Source: Candidatus Methylomirabilis sp. (GTDB taxonomy: Bacteria; Methylomirabilota; Methylomirabilia; Methylomirabilales; Methylomirabilaceae). From it: a DNA stretch of 10,618 nt. The notes under the pieces were generated by a model, which saw only the letters and a program-made list of their open reading frames with translations, made no database searches and had not been told where the DNA came from. Location of the stretch: positions 1 through 10,618 of the forward strand of contig JBGQJI010000085.1 of NCBI GenBank assembly GCA_041498975.1, in the 5' to 3' direction. Positions 1 to 10,295 of this stretch are shown here, piece after piece (the stretch's first letter is position 1; every line of letters begins with the position of its first letter). The position numbers and the translations under genes are program-made.

Positions 1-6
1 CCACAT

Positions 7-543
7 TTATCGATGATTGGCCGCGACACCACGCGACGGCCGCAAGACAATGGCCTGTTCACCGGCGATCTCAAGCAGCGAGAGCCGCATAACGCCACTT
101 TCCAGCCAGTGTGGCGCTAGCCGGCTCAGGCTGATCGGCAAGGCGTCTAGTTCCAGGCCAACCGGCTCGTGAACCAACCACCCTCCCTCCATCCGAAAGC
201 CAGCCCCCTGCTGTTGCCGATCCGGAGTCCCGGCGCCATATCCTTGGGTGGAGCTGGTCAGGAGGCGCAGTCGTGCGGTTGGCGTGATCTGGTAGGTCTC
301 GCGCCACTGAAAGTGCTCGACGGAGTGCTCCCAGGTCACGGTAAAACGCTCAGTTATTGGGACCGGAACGATCCGCAAGAGGCGGGGCGGAACGCTCTGA
401 GTCCAGATCTCCAGCTCCCTAGCACGCGCCACGCCTCCCGACAATAGGAGGATTCCAATGCAATAAAGCGTCACGCGACGCAACGCGGTCTCTCGTACCC
501 CAGGAAGACTCTGAGCCCTCCCCGTCGCCATCACGGGTATCAA
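7..543 (-). CDS. DUF1850-family protein (N-terminal hydrophobic anchor); true start uncertain (TTG 543, ATG 531 or later)
   Basis: Translation contains FTVTWEHSVEHFQWRETY...LRLLTSSTQGYGAGTP, matching the remembered DUF1850 pattern (FxxxxxHSVExxxxxExY...GAGxP). It is preceded by a hydrophobic stretch, LYCIGILLLSGG. Co-oriented and about 50 nt downstream of the cassette A permease. Confidence 0.7.
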   Translation of the reverse strand: MIPVMATGRAQSLPGVRETALRRVTLYCIGILLLSGGVARARELEIWTQSVPPRLLRIVPVPITERFTVTWEHSVEHFQWRETYQITPTARLRLLTSSTQGYGAGTPDRQQQGAGFRMEGGWLVHEPVGLELDALPISLSRLAPHWLESGVMRLSLLEIAGEQAIVLRPSRGVAANHR

Positions 544-594
544 CTCGACAACTCTCGCGGTTAGGTCAATGCGTTGGGGTGTGAAGCTTCGTGG

Positions 595-1704
595 CTACTT
601 GACGGCGCCGGTGGTCATGCCCGAAATGAAATAATCGAGGGATAGCGCGTACAAAATCACCACCGGGATCGACCCTATTATCGCAGACGCCATGAGCGGC
701 CCCCAGAAATATACGTCCCCGCGGACCATGTCCACCGTGATACCAACTGGCAGGGTCCGGTTCACGGTCGAGCTGATAAAGGTGAGTGCGTAGACGTACT
801 CCTGGAACGAGAGGGTGAAGGCGAAGATGGCCGCAGTCAGGATTCCTGGAAGCACGACCGGGATCACAACCAGGCGGAGCATCTGTAAGCGCGTCGCCCC
901 GTCCAGCAGCGCACGCTCTTCGATCTCCTTCGGGACGCTCCGGAAGAACCCCATGAGCAGCCACGTGCAGAACGGGACGGTAAATGTCGGGTATGTGAGA
1001 ATCAAAGACCAGATCGTGTTGGAGACCTTCAGCGCAGATACAAATTGGGAAAACGGAATGAACAGGATCGTCGACGGGATGAGGTAGGTCAGGAATATGG
1101 CGATCCCCACACCACGGTTGCCCGGAAAGCGCAACCTCGCCAGACCGTAGGCGGCCGGGACCGCCATCAGAAGCGTGATGACCACCACCACCGAGCCGGT
1201 CACGAGGCTCACCCGCATCCAGCGATAGAAGGGGGTGCTGAACAGATACCGGTAGTGTGTGAGGGTCGGGTTGGGCACATGGATGACGCCGATCACCTCG
1301 TTGGGATGCGCGATCTGCCCGGATTGAACGCGGACCTCCGCCAGCGTCCCATCAACCGGGCTTGTGATCTTCTGCTCACCGATAAATGCGATGGGCGCGG
1401 GATCTTGCTCACTGTCGCTCCGAGTGGTCTGGGCACTCTGGCCGATCTGCCACCGGATCACGCCCTCGACCAGTGATGCGGGCACGATGATGTCTTTGTG
1501 GTATGGCAACCCGCTGGCACTATCCACCCTCGAGAACCAAAAGGGATTCCTCCGAAGGTCGTACAGGTTTGCGTCAGCCTTCAGCGAAGTAATGAGCCCC
1601 CAATAGAATGGGAACAGAGCGAAGGCAAGGAAGGGAGCCAGCCCAAGGTATGAGAAGAGGTGGGGCTTGATCCGGTGCCAGACTGCCCCGCGCCCTTGCG
1701 CCAT
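595..1704 (-). CDS. Carbohydrate (CUT1) ABC transporter permease, MalG-like, with ~85-aa extracytoplasmic lipoyl-fold-like insertion
   Basis: FPFYWGLITSLK, AAYGLARLRFPG, YPTFTVPFCTWLLMGFFRSVPKEIEERALLDGA (EAA-type loop), TLPVG, C-terminal GMTTGAVK. Starts 2 nt after the stop of the upstream permease. Confidence 0.95.
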   Translation of the reverse strand: MAQGRGAVWHRIKPHLFSYLGLAPFLAFALFPFYWGLITSLKADANLYDLRRNPFWFSRVDSASGLPYHKDIIVPASLVEGVIRWQIGQSAQTTRSDSEQDPAPIAFIGEQKITSPVDGTLAEVRVQSGQIAHPNEVIGVIHVPNPTLTHYRYLFSTPFYRWMRVSLVTGSVVVVITLLMAVPAAYGLARLRFPGNRGVGIAIFLTYLIPSTILFIPFSQFVSALKVSNTIWSLILTYPTFTVPFCTWLLMGFFRSVPKEIEERALLDGATRLQMLRLVVIPVVLPGILTAAIFAFTLSFQEYVYALTFISSTVNRTLPVGITVDMVRGDVYFWGPLMASAIIGSIPVVILYALSLDYFISGMTTGAVK

Positions 1705-1706
1705 CG

Positions 1707-3044
1707 CTACGCCTCTCGACGAAGGAACTGGAGCATGAAGTAGACCATCACGGCCATGATCGGGAACATGAAGAGGGAAATCGCCGCGCCCCTGCCCAGG
1801 TACCCGGCGTTGACCCCTATTTGATAGGCGTAGGTCGAAAGGACCTGCGTCTGGTCATAGGGTCCCCCTTTCGTGATGATCCAGATGGTGTTGAAATCTG
1901 TAAAGCTGAAGATCACGGAGAAGAGGAGCGAGACCATCAGGATGGGCCGAACCATCGGCGAGATGATGTAGATGAACCGCTGGAAAGCGCTGGCGCCGTC
2001 CACACGGGCCCGCTCGATGATCTCGTCGGGAATGGCGGTGAGGCCGGCCAGGATCACGATCGTCGTGAAAGGGAAACCCCGCCACACGTTGACGAGGATG
2101 ACCGAAAACATGGCCCAGTCCTTATCGCCCCGGAAGTTGATGATATTGGCGGGCGTGATGATCCCCCAGTTGACCAGGCACCAGTTAATGACGCTGTAGG
2201 TAGAATCGAGGATCCACAGCCAAGCCTGCGCGCTGATGGCGATCGGAATCACCCAAGGGATCACGATGAGGCCGCGGAGAATCCTCCGGCCACCGAAGCG
2301 CCGGTTGAGCAACATGGCGCAGGGAACTCCGATGAACAGCTTGACGATCTCGGTCCCGAACGTGTACTTGAACGTGTTCTTGAGGGCCAGTGGGAAGTTC
2401 GGGTCTTGGACAACGCCCGTCCCGTTCGTCTTGACCCTGGTGTCGGCCTTCAGCAGGAGTTGCTCCTTTCGCATTCGGTCCAGCGCCCCTCTGGTAGCGA
2501 ACGGGCCCAGCGTGATCGGGGACTCTTTGGCGTGGGCCACAACGGCGTAGCTCCCCGCCTCTGGTCGGACCTCCCAGTCAAGGTCTTGAAGGATGGTCTC
2601 GCCCTGAAAGACGACGTCCTTCTCGTTTTCCATTTCGAGGAATGGGATCGTGCGGTCGGCAATCAGGAACGAGCCACGGAACCGCGCCCCCTGGGCCGGG
2701 GCGGTGACCACCTTCCCCTGGCTACGCTGCGCGACGAATGCCCGTGCGACCGCCTCGGTGGGAAACGTCGCGATCACGAAATCGTTGGCGAGGATTTCGT
2801 AACTTGACACGTGTGAATAATTGCCCAGGCCAATAAAACTCCACCGCTCATTACCGGCTTGCGCGTCGGTCAGGCTCAGATAGATGGACATGATGAACGG
2901 ATAGGCGATAAACAGGCTCAAGTAGAGGATGGCTGGCAGGATCAGCGCGTAACCAAGCGGTCGTTCCCTCTCGAGGAACTTGACCCGGCTGCGGGCCGGC
3001 GTTACAACCTCGGCGGGAAGCGCGGGCGCAGTCAGATCGCGCAC
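1707..3044 (-). CDS. Carbohydrate (CUT1) ABC transporter permease, MalF-like, with ~130-aa extracytoplasmic insertion
   Basis: LPAILYL..YPF, FIGLGNY, NVWRGFPF, LAGLTAIPDEIIERARVDGA, TKGGP. The GTG start overlaps the ATPase stop by 13 nt and has GGGAGA just upstream. Confidence 0.95.
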   Translation of the reverse strand: MRDLTAPALPAEVVTPARSRVKFLERERPLGYALILPAILYLSLFIAYPFIMSIYLSLTDAQAGNERWSFIGLGNYSHVSSYEILANDFVIATFPTEAVARAFVAQRSQGKVVTAPAQGARFRGSFLIADRTIPFLEMENEKDVVFQGETILQDLDWEVRPEAGSYAVVAHAKESPITLGPFATRGALDRMRKEQLLLKADTRVKTNGTGVVQDPNFPLALKNTFKYTFGTEIVKLFIGVPCAMLLNRRFGGRRILRGLIVIPWVIPIAISAQAWLWILDSTYSVINWCLVNWGIITPANIINFRGDKDWAMFSVILVNVWRGFPFTTIVILAGLTAIPDEIIERARVDGASAFQRFIYIISPMVRPILMVSLLFSVIFSFTDFNTIWIITKGGPYDQTQVLSTYAYQIGVNAGYLGRGAAISLFMFPIMAVMVYFMLQFLRREA

Positions 3045-4117
3045 TCGGTCTCCCGATCGAAGAGATACGCTCGATTCATATCGAACCAGAAATCGATGTG
3101 ATCGAGGCGCTGGACCCCTGCATAAATCTCGATCTCAACCTGGAATACCCCAGCGGAGCACGTGGCAGACACAATGACGTCGTGCCCGAGCGGCTCCACT
3201 TCGTCGATCACGGCCGGGACCTTCACCGCATATGGGCGCCCGTTGGGATCAAGCGAAATGTACTCGGGCCGGATTCCGAACACGACCGGGCGGCCGGCGG
3301 ACCCCACGAGATCCTGCCGGGCAAGTCGCAGTCGCAGCCCCCCCTCGAGGACGACCGCGGCTTGCCCGTCACTTGTCGCCAGCTCTCCGTTAAAGAAGTT
3401 CATGGGGGGGCTGCCAATGAAGCTGGCGACGAATTGGGTGGCCGGCCGATCGTACACCTCGAGGGGCGTACCGATCTGGCAGATGACGCCGTGGTTCATG
3501 ATCACGATCCGGTCGCCCATCGTCATCGCCTCGACCTGATCGTGAGTAACGTAGATCATCGTGGACTTGACGCTATGGTGGAGTCGCTTAAGCTCCGTGC
3601 GCATGTGCACGCGGAGCTTGGCGTCGAGATTCGACAACGGCTCATCGAAGAGGAGCACCCCTGCCTGGCGGCAGAGGGCCGCCCCCACCGCCACCCGCTG
3701 CCGCTGTCCGCCCGAGAGCTGCCTGGGCTTGCGCTCGAGATGCTCGCCGAGGCCGAGGATATCAGCGACTTCCCGGACGCGCCCGTCGATCTCCCGCTTA
3801 GGCAGTCTTCTGAGCTGGAGAGCAAACGCCATATTGCGATAGACCGTCATGTGGGGATACAGCGCGTAGCTCTGGAAGACCATGGCGATGTCGCGGTCAC
3901 GCGGGGGGAGATACGTCACCGACCGACCGCCGATCCGGATGTCGCCGCCGGACACCTCCTCCAATCCTGCGATCATGCGGAGGGTCGTCGTCTTGCCGCA
4001 TCCGGACGGGCCGACGAGGATAACGAACTCCTGGTCCTTCACGGTGAGGTCGATCCCGCGGACGGCCAGCACCTCACCGAACCGTTTCTCGACGTGCTCG
4101 AGCGTCACGTCTGCCAT
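3032..4117 (-). CDS. MalK/UgpC/MsmX-family ABC transporter ATP-binding protein with C-terminal TOBE/OB region
   Basis: Walker A GPSGCGKT, Q-loop MVFQSYALYPH, signature LSGGQRQR, Walker B/D-loop LLFDEPLSNLD, H-switch YVTHDQVEAM, FIGSPPMN, GIRPE. Confidence 0.97.
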   Translation of the reverse strand: MADVTLEHVEKRFGEVLAVRGIDLTVKDQEFVILVGPSGCGKTTTLRMIAGLEEVSGGDIRIGGRSVTYLPPRDRDIAMVFQSYALYPHMTVYRNMAFALQLRRLPKREIDGRVREVADILGLGEHLERKPRQLSGGQRQRVAVGAALCRQAGVLLFDEPLSNLDAKLRVHMRTELKRLHHSVKSTMIYVTHDQVEAMTMGDRIVIMNHGVICQIGTPLEVYDRPATQFVASFIGSPPMNFFNGELATSDGQAAVVLEGGLRLRLARQDLVGSAGRPVVFGIRPEYISLDPNGRPYAVKVPAVIDEVEPLGHDVIVSATCSAGVFQVEIEIYAGVQRLDHIDFWFDMNRAYLFDRETECAI

Positions 4118-4145
4118 GGCTGGCTCGCACGAAGGCGTAAGCGAG

Positions 4146-4178
4146 AGCGGCGTGCCGGTTTGCGGCCGCTACGCCGCT
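4146..4178 (-). promoter_or_regulatory. Intercistronic stem-loop after the solute-binding protein gene (probable mRNA-stabilising hairpin)
   Basis: AGCGGCGT (4146-4153) pairs with ACGCCGCT (4171-4178), with an inner GCCG/CGGC stem. No U-tract follows on the minus (coding) strand. Confidence 0.5.
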
Positions 4179-4189
4179 TTTCCCACTGT

Positions 4190-5497
4190 CTATCCGGCAC
4201 GCAGCTTCTGCTCCGCTTCATCCATCGCAGCCCGCGGCGCCTTCTGGCCGGTGCATACCTGCGCGAACATCGTGGGGACGATGAACTTGGCGTACATGGT
4301 CGTCGCTGTCTTGGTCATTGGGCCAGGAAAGCCGATGAACTTCACGTAATCCTGGTAATCCTGCAGGAGCATCAGCTTCGGCTCATGGCCGATCACCGGC
4401 ATGGGCTTCTTGAAGAAGGCTCTGAGGTAGGGATGATTGTAGCCGGTGGAGGATTCCATTCCCTTCAGACCCTCTTTGTTCATCGCGTATAGGAACTCCT
4501 TGGCCAGATCCTGCACCTTGGAGAACTTGTAGATCCCATACGACATGGTCCGAGCGCCCCCAACTCGAATCTCACCCGCCCCGATCGGCGCCTTCACGAT
4601 CTCCAAGTTCTTATAGACATCCGGCTGGTCTTTGGCCGCGGTCCGATATGCGCTGATGGGATTGCAAATCATCGAGCCCTTGCCGGAGGCGATGAACCGG
4701 TTGTTCGAGGTATCGTCCCAGCTCAGCACCTCGTCGGTCATCGTCTCCTTGAAGAGCGCTGCGCCGAACCGGAGCACCTCGACGATCTCCTTCTTGGCGA
4801 AGGCGATCTGCCCAACCGTGTTGAACATGTCGGCCTTGTAGCTAAGCATCATGGGGACCAGGTTATCGTTGGAGTCGGGCGTCTGCGATATGGGAATGCC
4901 CAGCGGATGGCCGGCCTTCTTCAGCTTTGCCCCGATTTGTCGGATATCCTCCCACGTGGTCTTGTCGGTGTAGTCCGCTCCGACTTCGTTGAAGTACTGG
5001 CGGTTGATAATCCAGGGGAAGCTCATGTACCAGTGCGGGATGCAGAGCCACTTGCCGCGGACCACAGCTACCGATGAGGCTTCAGGGATCCAGCCACCGA
5101 ATTCCTTTGCCAGCCGGTTGGAGACATCGGTCACGTCAACCAGCCCCTGATCGTAGAGCCACCCTCCCGTACCGTTCAAATGGAAGATGTCGTGACCGCC
5201 GCCTCGGGAGATGTCGGCTGCGATCGCGGTAGGGAGATCGGGCGTGGCGACATAGTCCACCTCGACCTTGACCTTGTGGGCCTCGCCAAAAGCCTTGGTG
5301 AAGACATCGAAGTACTTGTCATAATCGGGCACGAAGTGCTTCCAGTGGACGATCTTCAGGACCTTTTCCTGGGCCTCGGAAACGCGCCGTACCAAAATTG
5401 TCGGTGCGGCGACAGCCGCGCTCGCGGCAAGAGACAGCTTCAAGAAGTCGCGCCGCCCGATCCCAGCTTGCTTAGGGCTTTCGTGTCGCTTTTGCAT
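4190..5497 (-). CDS. Extracellular solute-binding protein (family 1) with twin-arginine (Tat) signal
   Basis: GRRDFLK twin-arginine motif followed by a hydrophobic stretch and EAQ. Body motifs WKHFVPDYD, LVDVTDV, GHPLG, WDDTSNNRF. Strong RBS GGAGG upstream (CCTCC at 5503-5507 on +). Confidence 0.95.
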   Translation of the reverse strand: MQKRHESPKQAGIGRRDFLKLSLAASAAVAAPTILVRRVSEAQEKVLKIVHWKHFVPDYDKYFDVFTKAFGEAHKVKVEVDYVATPDLPTAIAADISRGGGHDIFHLNGTGGWLYDQGLVDVTDVSNRLAKEFGGWIPEASSVAVVRGKWLCIPHWYMSFPWIINRQYFNEVGADYTDKTTWEDIRQIGAKLKKAGHPLGIPISQTPDSNDNLVPMMLSYKADMFNTVGQIAFAKKEIVEVLRFGAALFKETMTDEVLSWDDTSNNRFIASGKGSMICNPISAYRTAAKDQPDVYKNLEIVKAPIGAGEIRVGGARTMSYGIYKFSKVQDLAKEFLYAMNKEGLKGMESSTGYNHPYLRAFFKKPMPVIGHEPKLMLLQDYQDYVKFIGFPGPMTKTATTMYAKFIVPTMFAQVCTGQKAPRAAMDEAEQKLRAG

Positions 5498-5732
5498 TGC
5501 GTCCTCCTATGACGGGAGAACCCGACCTGCGGGCGCCCCGTGCTATGCAATTTGGAAATCCCCACTCATCCTCGGTGACGGATGTCGGACTGATTGGGCT
5601 AGGTTCATTGCTACGATGGGCTCGAGGGAACAGGGCCCAGGAAAACATAGCTACCCAGTACGATTCGTTTGTCTGGAGCGTGCGCACCCACTACTACATC
5701 GGACCGCCCATTGGGCCGGAAAAAGCGTCCCA

Positions 5733-5762
5733 AGAATGGCCAAATTTCCCATTCCCTGTCAA
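5733..5762 (-). promoter_or_regulatory. Candidate sigma70-type promoter for cassette A
   Basis: Minus strand reads TTGACA (5762-5757), an 18-nt spacer, then CATTCT (5738-5733), in an AT-richer patch of the intergenic region. Confidence 0.5.
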
Positions 5763-5820
5763 TAGAAAAGTGGCGCAGGGCGTAGAGGTTGAAGCCTCCT
5801 GGCCGGATTTCCGCGTTGTT

Positions 5821-5830
5821 GGTCATGACC
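5821..5830. promoter_or_regulatory. Perfect 10-bp palindrome GGTCATGACC, possible transcription-factor operator
   Basis: Seen directly, about 60 bp upstream of the candidate -35. Function is inferred only. Confidence 0.25.
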
Positions 5831-5985
5831 GGATAGACGCGCTCGACAAAACAGGGTATCCAGAATCATCGCCGGAGCCGATGCAACAAGCGGCATGACG
5901 GTTCTGTCGCCAAAGGCTCGGAGAATCGTGGGATTCGTTGGACAAGGGTGCGGTATCGCGGCGGTTCAGTCTGGGAGGGCGAGTC

Positions 5986-6489
5986 TCAGTAGGCCTTGTT
6001 AATCACGATGTCCACGTTCGTAGACCCCACGGTTACCGGATTCCCCGAGTAGGTTCCTTCGAGCGTGCCCGGCTTTGCAGCGCCCACCATCCCTGCCGGA
6101 TCGATGCGCGCCGTGACGTACACCTTGCCCACAAAAGTCGAACCGACAAGAGTGATGTCCTCAGACGTGAGCTTATACTGATAGGGGAAGGTGGCGTCGA
6201 AAACCCGATTGACGACGATGGCCGGCTTGTTGGGCGCCGCTGATGGCGAGGCCATGATCATGAGAAGCGGCCGTTTTCCCGCCTTCTGCTTGAGGGACGG
6301 GTCCAAGGTGATCGTGCCCGAGATGGCCGCTTCCTGGGTTGGCGCCGTCTCCGCGGCCGGAGCCGAGGGTCCAGCCTTCTTTTCCTCCTTCTTCTCCCCA
6401 CAGGCTTGTAGAACTATCAAGAGAGCGACAATGGTTAGCGCGATCGTGAACCCAGAGCGATGACGTTCCGTTGTCGTCACTTTTCGCAT
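5986..6489 (-). CDS. Lipoprotein with a stand-alone CcmI/CycH C-terminal Ig-like domain
   Basis: Hydrophobic signal ending in lipobox LQAC (Cys30), then a Lys/Glu and Ala/Pro linker. ISGTITLDPSL..LMIMA...P..V.R....FPYQYKLTSED...VYVTARIDPAG....PGTLEG resembles the CycH/CcmI C-terminal domain pattern. RBS GGAGG abuts the start (6490-6494). Confidence 0.7.
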   Translation of the reverse strand: MRKVTTTERHRSGFTIALTIVALLIVLQACGEKKEEKKAGPSAPAAETAPTQEAAISGTITLDPSLKQKAGKRPLLMIMASPSAAPNKPAIVVNRVFDATFPYQYKLTSEDITLVGSTFVGKVYVTARIDPAGMVGAAKPGTLEGTYSGNPVTVGSTNVDIVINKAY

Positions 6490-6623
6490 CCTCCAAGATT
6501 ACAGTCCCCCGGCACTCCGCTAGTGCCGTTCGAGCTACTTGCGCCAAAATAGTGAGAATATGGAAGGCGATAGTTCTTAGCAGGACATCTGTCGGCGATT
6601 GGCTGCAACGAGCTTGAACGGTA

Positions 6624-7550
6624 CTAGCCCTTTACGGCACCGGTGATCCCAGCCACGTAATGTTCGACGAAGAATGAGTAGATCAGAGCGACAGGGATCG
6701 AGCCCAGCAGGGCCCCCGCCATCAGTTCGCCCCAGTAGAACACGTCACCCTTGATTAGTTCACTCACCACGCCTACGGGAACCGTCTTGTTGGCGGCGTC
6801 GGAAATGAAGATCAGCGCATAGAGAAACTCATTGGCCGACAGGGTGAAAGCGAAGATTCCAGCCGAGACCACGCCCGGCAGGGCCAGGGGCAGGATGATC
6901 CGCAGCATGGCCTGAATCCGGGTCGCGCCATCGATCATGGCCGCTTCCTCCAGCTCCTTGGGGATTGTCCGGAAGTAACCGGACAGGAGCCACGTGCAAA
7001 ACGGAACCAGGAAGGTCGGATAGGCCACAATCAGGCCCCACGGGTTGTTCAGCAAGTTCCAGTGCAGGAGCGGCATGTTCCCTATCAAGTCGGACAATGG
7101 AATGAAGAGCAGGGTGGGCGGGACCAGGTAGGTGATGAAGATCAGGACCCCCAAGGTGTCAACGCCCCGGAACTTCAGACGCGCAAGCGCATACGCCGCC
7201 GTGATCCCCGCGAAGAGGGAGACAATGGTGGAGACGATGGCGATGAACAGCGTGTTCTTCAGCCACTGGACGAAGAGGGTGTCCCGCAACAGGTAGCGCC
7301 AGTGGTAAAGGCAATTCTCCATCAGGGCCGAGCCGTCGAAGTGTACCGCCCTGACCTGCTCTACGATGGCCGTTGTGCACGCCACGGGTATATACGGGTT
7401 CACGTTCCGGTTATATGTCTCGTGAGTGGACTTGATGGAGGTCACGAACATCCAATAGAAGGGGAAAAGGGTGAAGACAATGAAGAAGAAGAGCGGGAGG
7501 TGAAAGACCACCAGCCGCTTGCCGAACCCCTCGCCCACCGGCGCTCGCAT
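6624..7550 (-). CDS. Carbohydrate (CUT1) ABC transporter permease, MalG-like (cassette B)
   Basis: FPFYWMFVTSIK, AAYALARLKFRG, YPTFLVPFCTWLLSGYFRTIPKELEEAAMIDGA (canonical EAA), GDVFYWG, GITGAVKG. Clear paralog of 595..1704. Confidence 0.96.
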   Translation of the reverse strand: MRAPVGEGFGKRLVVFHLPLFFFIVFTLFPFYWMFVTSIKSTHETYNRNVNPYIPVACTTAIVEQVRAVHFDGSALMENCLYHWRYLLRDTLFVQWLKNTLFIAIVSTIVSLFAGITAAYALARLKFRGVDTLGVLIFITYLVPPTLLFIPLSDLIGNMPLLHWNLLNNPWGLIVAYPTFLVPFCTWLLSGYFRTIPKELEEAAMIDGATRIQAMLRIILPLALPGVVSAGIFAFTLSANEFLYALIFISDAANKTVPVGVVSELIKGDVFYWGELMAGALLGSIPVALIYSFFVEHYVAGITGAVKG

Positions 7551-7554
7551 CGTC

Positions 7555-8583
7555 CTACCTTTGACCCCTTCGGAGGTAGACCAACTGATAGATGATCACG
7601 AGGGCGAGGACAGGGAACATGAAGAGGGACACAGCCGCGCCAAGCCCAAGCCTCGTTCCCACCATGGCGATCTGGTAGGCGTACGTCGCAAAAAGGTGGG
7701 TGCTGTTGGCCGGGCCTCCGCGGGTCAAGACGTACACGATCTGAAAGTCCGAGAACGTCACGATGATAGAGAACACAATGACCACCACCGTGATCGGCTT
7801 GATTCCAGGGAGCGTCACGTGCCAGAACCGCTGCCAGCCACTGGCGCCATCGATGGCCGCGGCCTCGTACAGATCCGGATCGATCGTTTGCAACCCTGCC
7901 AGGAACGAGATCGCATAGAAGGGGGTTCCGCGCCAGATATTGACGAAGGTGACTGACATCAGGGCCAGCGTAGGGTCGCCGAGCCAGAGCGGGCCTTTCA
8001 CGTACCCCCACCCCAACTTGGTATAGAACCAGCGAAGAGTCCAGTTGATCACGCTGAAGTCCGGATCGAAGATCCACAGAAAGGCGATGGTGCTGAGGAC
8101 CGTTGGAATGATCCAGGGCAGGAGGACCGCGGCCCGGACGATCCGCTGGAACCGTACCATCCGATTCAGCAGGACCGCCAGCCAGATCCCCAGGACCCAT
8201 TTTACTGCCGTGGCGATCCCGGTGTAGACAAAGCTGTTCCGAACCGCATTCCAGAAGACGCCGTCAGTGGTCCAGAGGTGGACGTAGTTCCTGAGGCCGA
8301 TGAAACTCACCCGAGACCATGGCATCCCGACTTCTTTGTTGGTGAGGCTCATCCAGACGCCCCAGCCGAAGGGGTAGGCAATGAAGGAGAAAATGATGAA
8401 GGCGGCGGGCAGCATGAGGAGATATCCCAGAACGTCCTGCCGCTCTAGGAGGCCTACCGCCCTTCGGGAAAGCCGGACGGTTCGGATCGCCCCAGGGCTG
8501 CTAGCGGCCGACTCCTCGACCGCCACCGGGAGCCCGGCGTGAGGCACCTCCTTTCCCGCACGCTCTCGAACCTTCTCTTCCAT
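7555..8583 (-). CDS. Carbohydrate (CUT1) ABC transporter permease, MalF-like (cassette B)
   Basis: YPF, FIGLRNY, NIWRGTPF, LAGLQTIDPDLYEAAAIDGA (canonical EAA), TRGGPANSTHL. Its stop lies 4 nt before the next gene. Confidence 0.96.
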   Translation of the reverse strand: MEEKVRERAGKEVPHAGLPVAVEESAASSPGAIRTVRLSRRAVGLLERQDVLGYLLMLPAAFIIFSFIAYPFGWGVWMSLTNKEVGMPWSRVSFIGLRNYVHLWTTDGVFWNAVRNSFVYTGIATAVKWVLGIWLAVLLNRMVRFQRIVRAAVLLPWIIPTVLSTIAFLWIFDPDFSVINWTLRWFYTKLGWGYVKGPLWLGDPTLALMSVTFVNIWRGTPFYAISFLAGLQTIDPDLYEAAAIDGASGWQRFWHVTLPGIKPITVVVIVFSIIVTFSDFQIVYVLTRGGPANSTHLFATYAYQIAMVGTRLGLGAAVSLFMFPVLALVIIYQLVYLRRGQR

Positions 8584-8609
8584 CCTGCCGATCTTCTCGC
8601 CAGCGACCG

Positions 8610-8640
8610 GGCGCCGGGGTTCCAGTGAGCCCCCGGCGCC
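8610..8640 (-). promoter_or_regulatory. GC-rich intercistronic stem-loop after the cassette B binding-protein gene
   Basis: GGCGCCGGGG (8610-8619) and CCCCGGCGCC (8631-8640) form a perfect 10-bp stem. There is no U-tract on the coding strand, so it is more likely a stabiliser than an intrinsic terminator. Confidence 0.6.
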
Positions 8641-8657
8641 TGCAGTTATCGCCGAGG

Positions 8658-9647
8658 TTACCCGGCGTAGATCGACTTGAGCTGCCCCTCAGCCCACTTC
8701 ATCGATTCCTCGGGCGACATCTTGCCCGTCGCGACGTTCGCCAGCATGTCGATGAGGACGTAGTTCTGGACGACCCGCGCCGCACCGACGTCCGCCTCGC
8801 CCTTCCACCCGACGTTCTTCATCTCCAGCAGGTGGTCCCTGAACGGCTTGAGGGCGGGGAACATGTCCCACATGAGGTCTTTCATGTACATCTTCAGGGC
8901 CCCTGCTTGATAGGCCTGCCCCCGGCGCAGGTACTTGGCAAGCTGATCCTTCTCCATGAGCCAGCGGATGAAATCCTTGGCCGCGTCCACATTCTTCGAA
9001 TACTTGGGGATCGCCAGTTGCTGGGTGTAGTGATAGTGGAAGACACCCGCCGGCCCCGCAGGGTTCGAGACGTGGGCGATGTCGTTGACCAGCGGGTCTC
9101 CGTTGTCATCGAGGATCACCTGATTCGAGGCGGTGAGGTAGATGCTCGGCGCGTTGTTGGTCGCGGCGATCGCCCCGGACAGGAACGCCCGGTTGTTGTT
9201 GGAGTCGTCCCAACCCGCCCCTGCGGGGTCCATCGCATCGTCCCAGAGGGCTTTGAAGAACTTCAACGCCTCCAAGGTTTGCTTGCTCCCGATGGTGACC
9301 CGCCCCTTCTCATCGCGCTCCGCGGCGCCGAAGCTCCACAGGTAGGGGTACGTGAAATCCACGGCGTCGCCGAATGTGTGGCCGACGGTCTGGCCGATCG
9401 GATGCCCTGCGGCCTTCCACTTCTTTCCCTCACGCCGCAGCTCCTCCCACGTCTTGGGCCAATGCTGAGTGCCCGCAGCCTTGAGATAGGAATTCCGAAC
9501 GACATAGACATTAGGGACGATGGTGTGTGGGACCGCGTTGAACCGCCCACCAAGCATGGCGTGGCGCTTGCAATAATCAAGGTAGCCGCCGTATTTGGAT
9601 TCCAGAGCGGTGCAGAGATCGGTGACATCAACCAGCGCGTCCGCATA
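8658..9647 (-). CDS. C-terminal ~320 aa of a family-1 solute-binding protein, paralog of 4190..5497; N-terminus and signal peptide absent (3' part of chimeric ORF 8658..10295)
   Basis: LVDVTDL..L..KYGG, GHPIG, WDDSNNNRAFLSG and IPKYSKNVDAAKDF align with LVDVTDV..L.KEFGG, GHPLG, WDDTSNNRFIASG and IYKFSKVQDLAKEF of the cassette A binding protein. Confidence 0.9.
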   Translation of the reverse strand, partial: YADALVDVTDLCTALESKYGGYLDYCKRHAMLGGRFNAVPHTIVPNVYVVRNSYLKAAGTQHWPKTWEELRREGKKWKAAGHPIGQTVGHTFGDAVDFTYPYLWSFGAAERDEKGRVTIGSKQTLEALKFFKALWDDAMDPAGAGWDDSNNNRAFLSGAIAATNNAPSIYLTASNQVILDDNGDPLVNDIAHVSNPAGPAGVFHYHYTQQLAIPKYSKNVDAAKDFIRWLMEKDQLAKYLRRGQAYQAGALKMYMKDLMWDMFPALKPFRDHLLEMKNVGWKGEADVGAARVVQNYVLIDMLANVATGKMSPEESMKWAEGQLKSIYAG

Positions 9648-10295
9648 CTCCGGCCCAATGATTTTTTCTGCCACCGCCCGCGCCGCGGAAAGATTCGGGA
9701 CGCGGTGCTTGGTGTCGTGAGCGTCCGAGGCCAGAATGTGGACAGCCGAGCGGTCGAGCAGCCAGCGCGCAATGATCTCGGGCCGCTCTCCCCACAGCCC
9801 CGTCAGCGCCGAGGCCGTGACCTGAATCAGACAGCCCTGCTCCGCCCACTCGAGAATGCGCTGCGGCGTTTGTTGCAGGATAGGGTTACGTTCAGGATGG
9901 GTCAGAATCGGCGTCAGCCCGCGATCTCCCAAACGCCGGAAACAGTCGGTAAGCTGGGTCGGCACGCTGTAGTTGCTCAGTTCAATCAGCAGATAGTTGG
10001 TTTCGCCAATCGTGTACGTGTGCGGCCGCTCCAAAACGCGTTCCAGATTCTCGAACGAAAGATGAAAATCGCAACCCAGGCTCAACTCCAGTATGGGGCC
10101 GGCCTTCTCCCGCAGTTCGCCCAAAAGCCCGGAAAGGTACGCGCGATCGTAGGCGTAACGATCACTGGCATGCGGAGTGGCCACAGTATGGGTTATGCCG
10201 TCCGCCGCCGCCATGCGGCACATTTCGACCGCAACATCCCAGGACTTGGGGCCGTCGTCGACCTCGGGCAGAAGGTGGCAGTGGATGTCGATCAC
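9627..10295 (-). CDS. CpsB/CapC (YwqE/Wzh-type) PHP-family metal-dependent protein-tyrosine phosphatase, apparently missing its last ~15 residues (5' part of chimeric ORF 8658..10295)
   Basis: MIDIHCHLLPEVDDG, VATPH, YLLIEL, ILTHPERN, LIQVTASALTG and ASDAH are the PHP metal-binding motifs of CpsB/CapC. GTG start. The usual terminal N-P helix is replaced by binding-protein sequence. Confidence 0.92.

Follow-up and report, generated by a model that had tools for sequence, protein, structure and literature searches.

An importer cassette with an enlarged MalG-type permease

The DNA considered here is the whole of contig JBGQJI010000085.1 (10,618 nucleotides, hereafter the window) from a metagenome-assembled genome of Candidatus Methylomirabilis sp. 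(GenBank assembly GCA_041498975.1). Its minus strand encodes a four-gene ATP-binding cassette (ABC) importer of the sugar-uptake type, in which the MalG-type permease carries an insert of 86 residues in its first periplasmic loop. The predicted structure of the insert is very probably that of a complete barrel-sandwich hybrid domain, the fold of lipoyl and biotinyl carriers, and the lysine on which such carriers are modified is absent. The insert is shared by numerous soil bacteria and probably serves in docking the solute-binding protein of the system.

The cassette runs from the solute-binding protein through the ATPase and the MalF-type permease to the MalG-type permease, and this order recurs in all related loci that extend far enough. 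Its first gene (4,190 to 5,497) encodes the solute-binding protein, which matches SBP_bac_1 and SBP_bac_8 and begins with a signal of the twin-arginine translocation (TAT) type, scored by the Pfam model TAT_signal at 21.1 bits, under the cut-off of 22.7. Remote relatives of this protein in the PDB are sugar binders, namely MalE3 (6dtq, E 3.4e-9), Lin1841 and SmoF. The MalK/UgpC-type ATPase (3,032 to 4,117) has ABC_tran and OB_MalK matches and scores 452.5 bits with the NCBIfam UgpC subfamily model (cut-off 432); like the binding protein, it is syntenic in relatives. The MalF-type partner permease (1,707 to 3,044; 445 amino acids; PF00528 at 58.7 bits) has a periplasmic insert of its own. The MalG-type permease is accordingly accompanied by a second permease, a MalK-type ATPase and a solute-binding protein, as is expected of a CUT1 operon, and a tblastn search with the nine proteins of the window found just these four genes in common between the window and the related loci.

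The MalG-type permease itself (595 to 1,704; 369 amino acids) was recognised as a CUT1 importer subunit from its open reading frame, its hydropathy, its PF00528 match and its SugB and MalG relatives. The BPD_transp_1 domain (PF00528) scores 49.1 bits (cut-off 26.4) over residues 182-362, and the nearest solved relatives of the core are SugB (8ja7_B, E 9.5e-29) and MalG (2r6g_G, E 3.6e-19), whose alignments start at residues 146 and 160, respectively, that is, beyond the insert. With the NCBIfam MalG model the protein reaches 88.3 bits, under the equivalog cut-off of 261, so by this measure it is a MalG relative and no MalG equivalog.

Limits, conservation and distribution of the inserted segment

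The limits of the insert were set by comparison with relatives that lack it. Among 79 genome loci of relatives, 64 are without the insert, and in the 13 of these that were inspected (56-60% identical in the permease core) residues 8-59 and 146-369 align by tblastn at adjacent DNA coordinates. The two pieces end and resume at 5565 and 5569 in locus L016 and at 7123 and 7127 in locus L028, and the closest insert-less relatives have one codon in place of residues 60-145 (1,270 to 1,527, minus strand). The original prediction for this DNA, made by a model from the letters of the window, had noticed about 85 extra residues in the permease; these are now 86 with exact bounds, and the translation of 1,270-1,533 on the minus strand gives residues 58-145, in agreement with the residues that it quoted.

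The prediction had also proposed that the architecture be sought in other genomes, and it is present there. The insert was found in frame in 123 database proteins (E ≤ 0.001 among 202 candidates, with residues 40-160 as the query) and in 15 of the 79 genome loci. The 120 matches listed are 57-100% identical to the window protein over residues 40-160 and mostly 347-379 amino acids long; the database annotations seen for relatives name PF00528 alone. The loci with the insert come from metagenome-assembled genomes labelled Acidobacteriota/Thermoanaerobaculia and Myxococcales, Haliangiales or 'delta proteobacterium', and the source names of the database matches add Casimicrobiaceae and Nitrosospira.

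Conservation was read from two alignments, a full-length one of 36 of the listed proteins, chosen to span the identity range, and an insert-only one (A2) of the window and 13 genome loci. The former gives a mean column identity of 79% for the full protein and the latter one of 75% for the insert, so that on this measure the insert is constrained about as strongly as the membrane core. Residues invariant in the insert among the 36 sequences include D61, Y68, K70, A76, W85, R95, P102 and A106, and further on S115, P116, V117, G119, L121, P134, G139 and V143, while hardly any variation is found in the loop segments PYHKDIIVPAS (67-77) and TTRSDSE (93-99). An artefact of assembly or annotation, an intein and a mobile insertion were considered as sources of the extra segment and are rejected in view of its reading frame, its core-like conservation and its presence in independent assemblies.

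A predicted barrel-sandwich hybrid fold

Two AlphaFold2 models bear on the fold. The full-length model, built from the 36-row alignment, is poor in its membrane part and has block means of 76-93 in the predicted local distance difference test (pLDDT) over residues 61-140, with strands at 69-73, 81-85, 106-108, 111-113, 119-124 and 137-142. The domain-only model, built from the 14 rows of A2, has a mean pLDDT of 81.8, rising to 85-96 over model residues 21-100, and likewise six strands. The barrel-sandwich hybrid core is placed at residues 68-143 (1,276 to 1,503, minus strand) by these models and by the structural matches to them, which cover model residues 21-103, equivalent to protein residues 66-148.

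The structural matches were obtained with two independent aligners. Foldseek against the PDB gave a probability of 1.00 for many chains, including the adaptor protein BesA, biotin carriers and the lipoyl domains 3crk_C, 1qjo and 1ghj. Its top match is BesA (E 7.8e-4), and the template-modelling scores (TM-scores), normalised to the target, are 0.62-0.80 for the biotin carrier and lipoyl domains; for the biotin carrier 2d5d_A the value is 0.78 at a root-mean-square deviation (rmsd) of 2.0 Å. VIA-align was run against 48,161 representative chains, 21 of which reach Z ≥ 8. The same 2d5d_A comes first (Z 9.7, rmsd 1.2 Å, 65 of 70 residues), followed by the lipoyl domain 1y8n_B (Z 9.5) and HlyD 5c21 (Z 9.1), with EmrA, AcrA, MexA, MacA and CusB at Z 7.3-8.7. 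The list further holds H-proteins and the C-terminal domains of CphZ and of succinylglutamate-desuccinylase-type enzymes, and the first 41 rows are presumably all barrel-sandwich hybrid domains, as judged by chain names.

Profile searches of sequence families point in the same direction at lower scores. Biotin_lipoyl_2 (PF13533) is the best Pfam match of the insert (E 2e-4; 21.6 bits against a cut-off of 29.8), and Biotin_lipoyl (PF00364; cut-off 22.1) scores 16.1 bits with the isolated insert (E 0.01) and 13.6 bits with the whole protein; the latter family matches 12 of 14 family members at E ≤ 1, the best at E 0.0013. A profile of the insert found 16 matches among PDB sequences (E 0.019-1.8), 13 of them biotinyl, lipoyl or membrane-fusion proteins by name, the rest being NusA, CbbQ and a proteasome subunit. 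The assignment to the barrel-sandwich hybrid fold rests on the convergence of the predicted structure, the two structure aligners and these weak but consistent profile matches. It bears out the lipoyl/biotinyl-type fold that the original prediction had read from the sequence, and the Foldseek search that it had suggested as a check did return the biotin carrier and lipoyl matches it expected.

The missing lysine

In lipoyl and biotinyl carriers the modified lysine lies on a central beta-hairpin, and in the insert this hairpin is formed by residues 104-113 (PIAFIGEQKI; 1,366 to 1,395, minus strand), with Ala106 and Ile108 at the site of the lysine. A HMMER alignment with the lipoyl domain 1lab, over positions 37-92 of the insert alignment, sets W85 of strand 2 opposite W21 and the invariant A106 opposite the lipoyl-lysine K42. 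In the corresponding alignment with the biotinyl domain 1dcz, which is gapless from the hairpin tip to the SPVDG motif, the modified lysine of 'MKM' falls opposite I108. Among the 36 sequences, lysine occurs in none at positions 104-106 and 108-111, in two at 107 and in seven at 112, and the one lysine that is invariant in the insert, K70, lies where strand 1 begins. There is neither a DKA nor an MKM tip to the hairpin. Because the modification site is without lysine throughout the 36 sequences, the insert, as far as its sequence tells, cannot act as a conventional lipoyl or biotinyl carrier and would hold no cofactor.

In this respect the original prediction fared unevenly. It had described a domain without a modifiable lysine, which agrees with A106 and I108 at the site, and it had set the only nearby lysine, K112, opposite the Glu of EVPSP, which HMMER reproduces (E46 of 'VEIPSP' in 1lab). 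Its further claim, that the hairpin was shortened by about four residues, was wrong; the hairpin has two extra residues (G109 and E110) relative to 1lab and aligns without gaps to 1dcz.

Periplasmic position and a second insert in the partner permease

By hydropathy, the first transmembrane helix (TM1) of the MalG-type permease spans approximately residues 15-41 and the second (TM2) 161-191, and the insert lies between them. MalG of Escherichia coli is described as having three periplasmic loops, the one between TM1 and TM2 among them (PMC6906923). Since the insert occupies the first loop after TM1, and that loop is periplasmic in MalG, we infer that it is periplasmic and in the loop equivalent to MalG-P1. 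The extracytoplasmic location given in the original prediction is thus supported by hydropathy and by homology to MalG, and by the same homology the insert does not share the cytoplasmic location of carrier domains.

The insert of the MalF-type permease comprises about 135 residues, approximately 78-212 (2,409 to 2,813, minus strand), between GLGNYSHV and QDPNF. Residues 224-442 of this protein align with positions 290-516 of the NCBIfam MalF model, just past the place of MalF-P2, the loop that spans residues 91-276 in E. coli MalF according to PMC6906923. It is present in 13 of the 13 MalG-insert-bearing loci that hold the gene, where the MalF-type protein aligns essentially over its full length across the insert (in three pieces in L015), and in none of the 13 inspected insert-less loci, in which the alignment of the protein breaks off near residue 106 and starts again near residue 206. 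Loci L007 and L013 were left out of this count as they are cut by contig ends.

The MalF-type insert of the window gave no Pfam match, no PDB sequence match at E ≤ 10 and no Atlas match, and the inserts of 12 relatives gave just single-member chance matches in Pfam. It is unrelated to the MalG-type insert (hhalign probability 1%).

Two further observations concern these segments. In a same-genus genome without the cassette (G061, contig C112, 36467-36637; positions 5468-5688 of locus L084), a 172-bp stretch is 84% identical to part of the region coding for the MalF-type insert; it is frameshifted, lies between lipase-like and aminotransferase genes, and to judge by its sequence looks like a relic of the cassette. 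Elsewhere in the window, a second MalG-type permease (6,624 to 7,550, minus strand, 308 amino acids), as read by eye, has approximately 35 extra residues in its own P1-equivalent loop, around IPVACTTAIVEQVRAVHFDGSALMENCLYHW, and this loop may be a recurrent insertion site.

Possible roles at the periplasmic face

With a lysine-less domain in the loop equivalent to MalG-P1 and a further insert at the place of MalF-P2, the two permeases most probably provide, on the periplasmic side, a joint platform above the membrane domains. Such a platform would receive the cognate solute-binding protein and hold it during the transport cycle. Docking of the binding protein at the MalG-P1-equivalent site is, in our analysis, the likeliest role of the insert, with a chance a little better than even once the structural assignment is counted in. 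It is rated so because the inserts occupy both of the loops that touch the binding protein in the maltose system and because MalF-P2 provides a precedent. A docking or structural module was also what the original prediction had inferred, a proposal for which the position of the insert speaks. According to PMC6906923, MalE can be cross-linked to both MalF P2 and MalG P1 of E. coli at every stage of the cycle, P1 has an important part in docking, and P2 of MalF, an additional folded domain, binds MalE by itself.

Several points weigh against a docking module of this fold. The fold is taken from predicted models built on shallow alignments of 14 and 36 rows, and the gathering cut-offs of PF00364 and PF13533 are not reached. 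The insert-less relatives, at 56-60% core identity, have orthologous binding proteins, so docking per se needs no insert, and the aligned binding proteins of four insert-bearing and seven insert-less systems are colinear and have no group-specific indel. A single ancestral event is probably behind the joint presence of the inserts, so that the 13 loci do not count as independent. Co-folding of the mature binding protein with the MalF-type and MalG-type inserts scored 0.00 in two runs without controls, a result that counts neither way.

A structural brace or lid, packing on the MalF-type insert or the membrane domains without contact to the binding protein, is a distinctly less probable role, although the best placed of the alternatives. 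It would stabilise the periplasmic face or shield the translocation cavity, and it would accommodate the strict co-occurrence of the two inserts and the lack of a matching indel in the binding protein. The conservation in the C-terminal half of the insert would also fit, as a large share of it falls on SPVDGxL...G...PN.VIG, the fold's own structural motif. However, the near-invariance of PYHKDIIVPAS and TTRSDSE seems to go beyond what a passive spacer needs, and the homologous loop in E. coli does touch MalE (PMC6906923).

The same invariant loop residues could instead be the site of a ligand- or glycan-binding module that catches the substrate, or a polymeric precursor, at the mouth of the transporter. 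Residues Y68, H69, K70, D71, W85, R95, D97, S98 and E99 are invariant and lie outside the canonical fold motif, and the cassette is of the sugar-uptake type. Nevertheless, this seems unlikely given that none of the listed structural matches is described as a carbohydrate-binding domain and that a dedicated binding protein is already encoded in the cassette.

The resemblance to membrane-fusion proteins raises the thought of a module that couples the importer to another envelope component, for example an outer-membrane channel or a periplasmic enzyme, mirroring the trans-envelope assemblies that are built by the lipoyl domains of these proteins. BesA is the leading Foldseek match at E 7.8e-4, HlyD, EmrA, AcrA, MexA and MacA follow at Z 7.3-9.1 in VIA-align, and the HlyD-type Biotin_lipoyl_2 family is the best Pfam match of the window protein. 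The architecture of membrane-fusion proteins consists of an alpha-hairpin, a beta-barrel and a membrane-proximal domain; the insert, by contrast, is one contiguous domain of 86 residues with none of these. Related loci, moreover, share only the four cassette genes, the DUF1850 and Ig_CycH-like lipoprotein genes that flank the cassette in the window not recurring in them. Coupling of this kind is improbable.

Lipoyl- and biotinyl-modifying ligases act in the cytoplasm. A functional lipoyl or biotinyl carrier, to which the fold and the subthreshold profile matches would point, is scarcely credible in a loop that homology places outside the cytoplasm and in which none of 36 sequences has lysine at the modification site. 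An assembly or annotation artefact, which might be suspected since the window is an entire contig of 10.6 kb and its metagenome-assembled genome is 84.9% complete, is equally hard to credit in view of an insert that is in frame and conserved in at least 120 clusters from many independent assemblies and 15 genome loci.

A bolder version of the docking idea is that both inserts form a permease-borne receptor with a capability beyond that of ordinary CUT1 systems and so define a new class of type I importers. Such a receptor might, for instance, take over substrate from an envelope machine in the manner of a membrane-fusion protein, or recognise a partner or ligand through the PYHKD/TTRSDSE surface; we regard both the receptor and these examples of its action as speculative and rather improbable. 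If true, this would be an architectural class that has spread horizontally among soil Acidobacteriota, Myxococcota and Betaproteobacteria.

Origin and genomic surroundings

The source of the domain could not be named. The original prediction had taken the insert for a recruited metabolic swinging-arm domain, a descent for which the structure searches give no preference. In structure searches with the insert, carrier domains and periplasmic membrane-fusion-protein domains tied, and a phmmer search with an 88-residue stretch against 1.84 billion representatives found no sequence relative outside the permease family. It gave eight matches at E ≤ 0.001, five from the same permease family and three of repetitive or low-complexity sequence, one of them chitin-binding and mucin-like and the other two made of tandem repeats, with no domain in common. 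In its own genome (2.68 Mb) the insert profile finds this copy alone, plus weak matches at E 0.0028 and 0.09, and it finds no further carrier among 250 other genomes of the phylum, the 19 of the same genus included.

The window falls into two parts. Positions 5,983-9,649 are 87-88% identical to contig C198 of a same-genus genome (G064), and positions 1-5,900, with the DUF1850 gene and the four-gene cassette, have no counterpart in the 19 same-genus genomes, none of which holds the DUF1850 gene. A second contig of the source genome itself (C8 of G000; locus L085) ends in a DUF1850 gene that is 64% identical to that of the window, followed by the final 45 codons of a MalG-type gene whose protein sequence there is identical; the remainder of C8 is 82% identical to G064 DNA. 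GC content varies little along the window (58-63%). As far as sequence comparison can indicate, the simplest reading is that a horizontally acquired cassette lies beside native genes, and a chimeric contig or a mixture of strains is a possible alternative explanation of the two-part window.

The genes that flank the cassette encode a DUF1850 protein (7 to 543, minus strand), just downstream, and a small Ig_CycH-like protein (5,986 to 6,489, minus strand), upstream, the N-terminus of which resembles a lipoprotein signal when read by eye. Both are probably outside the importer system, because by tblastn neither gene adjoins the cassette in related loci.

Further along the window, an element of about 108 bp (6,520 to 6,628) separates the stop codon of the second MalG-type permease gene from the Ig_CycH lipoprotein gene. 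It recurs at 72-87% identity in dozens of places in its own and same-genus genomes, has long terminal inverted repeats and folds into a single long hairpin (-41.2 kcal/mol, z -2.85). An Rfam scan of the window, this element included, returned no family, and it looks like an intergenic repeat of the repetitive extragenic palindromic (REP) or miniature inverted-repeat transposable element (MITE) type. Near the far end, an open reading frame of 545 amino acids (8,658 to 10,295, minus strand) begins with a CpsB/CapC-type phosphatase (residues 1-221), to which the C-terminal two thirds of a solute-binding protein are fused. Homology to an intact same-genus binding-protein gene stops at window position 9,649, and the binding-protein gene of this second operon seems to have been truncated by a rearrangement or an assembly join.

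Comparison with known systems

To our knowledge, the extra periplasmic domains on permeases of type I ABC importers are mainly represented by MalF-P2 of the maltose system. There, a single folded loop domain both binds the binding protein and reports whether substrate is available. Additional domains in the periplasmic loops of a CUT1 importer are thus already known, and it is the lysine-less lipoyl-type version that is new: no lipoyl-type domain in an importer permease was found described in full-text literature searches, with subscription journals outside this coverage, and within these limits the original prediction, which knew of no sugar permease of such architecture, agrees. The cassette has inserts in the equivalent loops of both permease subunits, the one in the MalG-type subunit being this lipoyl-type domain. 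Orthologous systems with and without the inserts offer a natural comparison for what such domains add to docking, and the insert would be a further case of the barrel-sandwich hybrid fold in use as a cofactor-free periplasmic module.

The lipoyl domains of 2-oxoacid dehydrogenase E2 subunits and the biotinyl domains of carboxylases resemble the insert in fold and size (2d5d_A at Z 9.7 and 1y8n_B at Z 9.5), have the C-terminal half-motif SPvDGxl..i.V..G..v in common with it and match its strand-2 tryptophan (W21 of 1lab). In place of their first half-motif, however, the insert has the conserved segment AHTTRSDSE..P.PIA, in place of their modified lysine it has Ala or Ile, and its Pfam score is 16.1 bits against the 22.1 required. 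Carrier domains also sit on a flexible cytoplasmic linker, whereas the insert is part of a membrane protein, within one of its periplasmic loops.

The 'lipoyl' domains of adaptor or membrane-fusion proteins, such as BesA, HlyD, EmrA, AcrA, MexA, MacA and CusB, are lysine-less periplasmic barrel-sandwich hybrids, and with its location taken by homology the insert has these properties of the HlyD family. In most membrane-fusion proteins, an alpha-helical hairpin interrupts the lipoyl domain, and other domains come after it. The insert, in contrast, is a single all-beta domain, contiguous and standing alone between the helices of an importer permease.

As for importers, the mycobacterial trehalose importer subunit SugB (8ja7_B and 7cad_B) has the closest solved core, with residues 146-369 of the window protein aligned to chain positions 48-273, but the best alignments begin at residue 146 and neither chain matches residues 60-145. 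E. coli MalFGK2 offers the nearest parallel in layout, as the insert lies in the loop of MalG-P1, which comes first among the periplasmic loops of the six-helix core, and the insert of the partner lies at MalF-P2. MalG itself aligns only from residue 160 of the window protein on and has nothing that matches the insert, and MalF-P2 is described as Ig-like and not as a barrel-sandwich hybrid (PMC6906923). Unlike MalFGK2, the cassette of the window has extra domains on both of its permease subunits.

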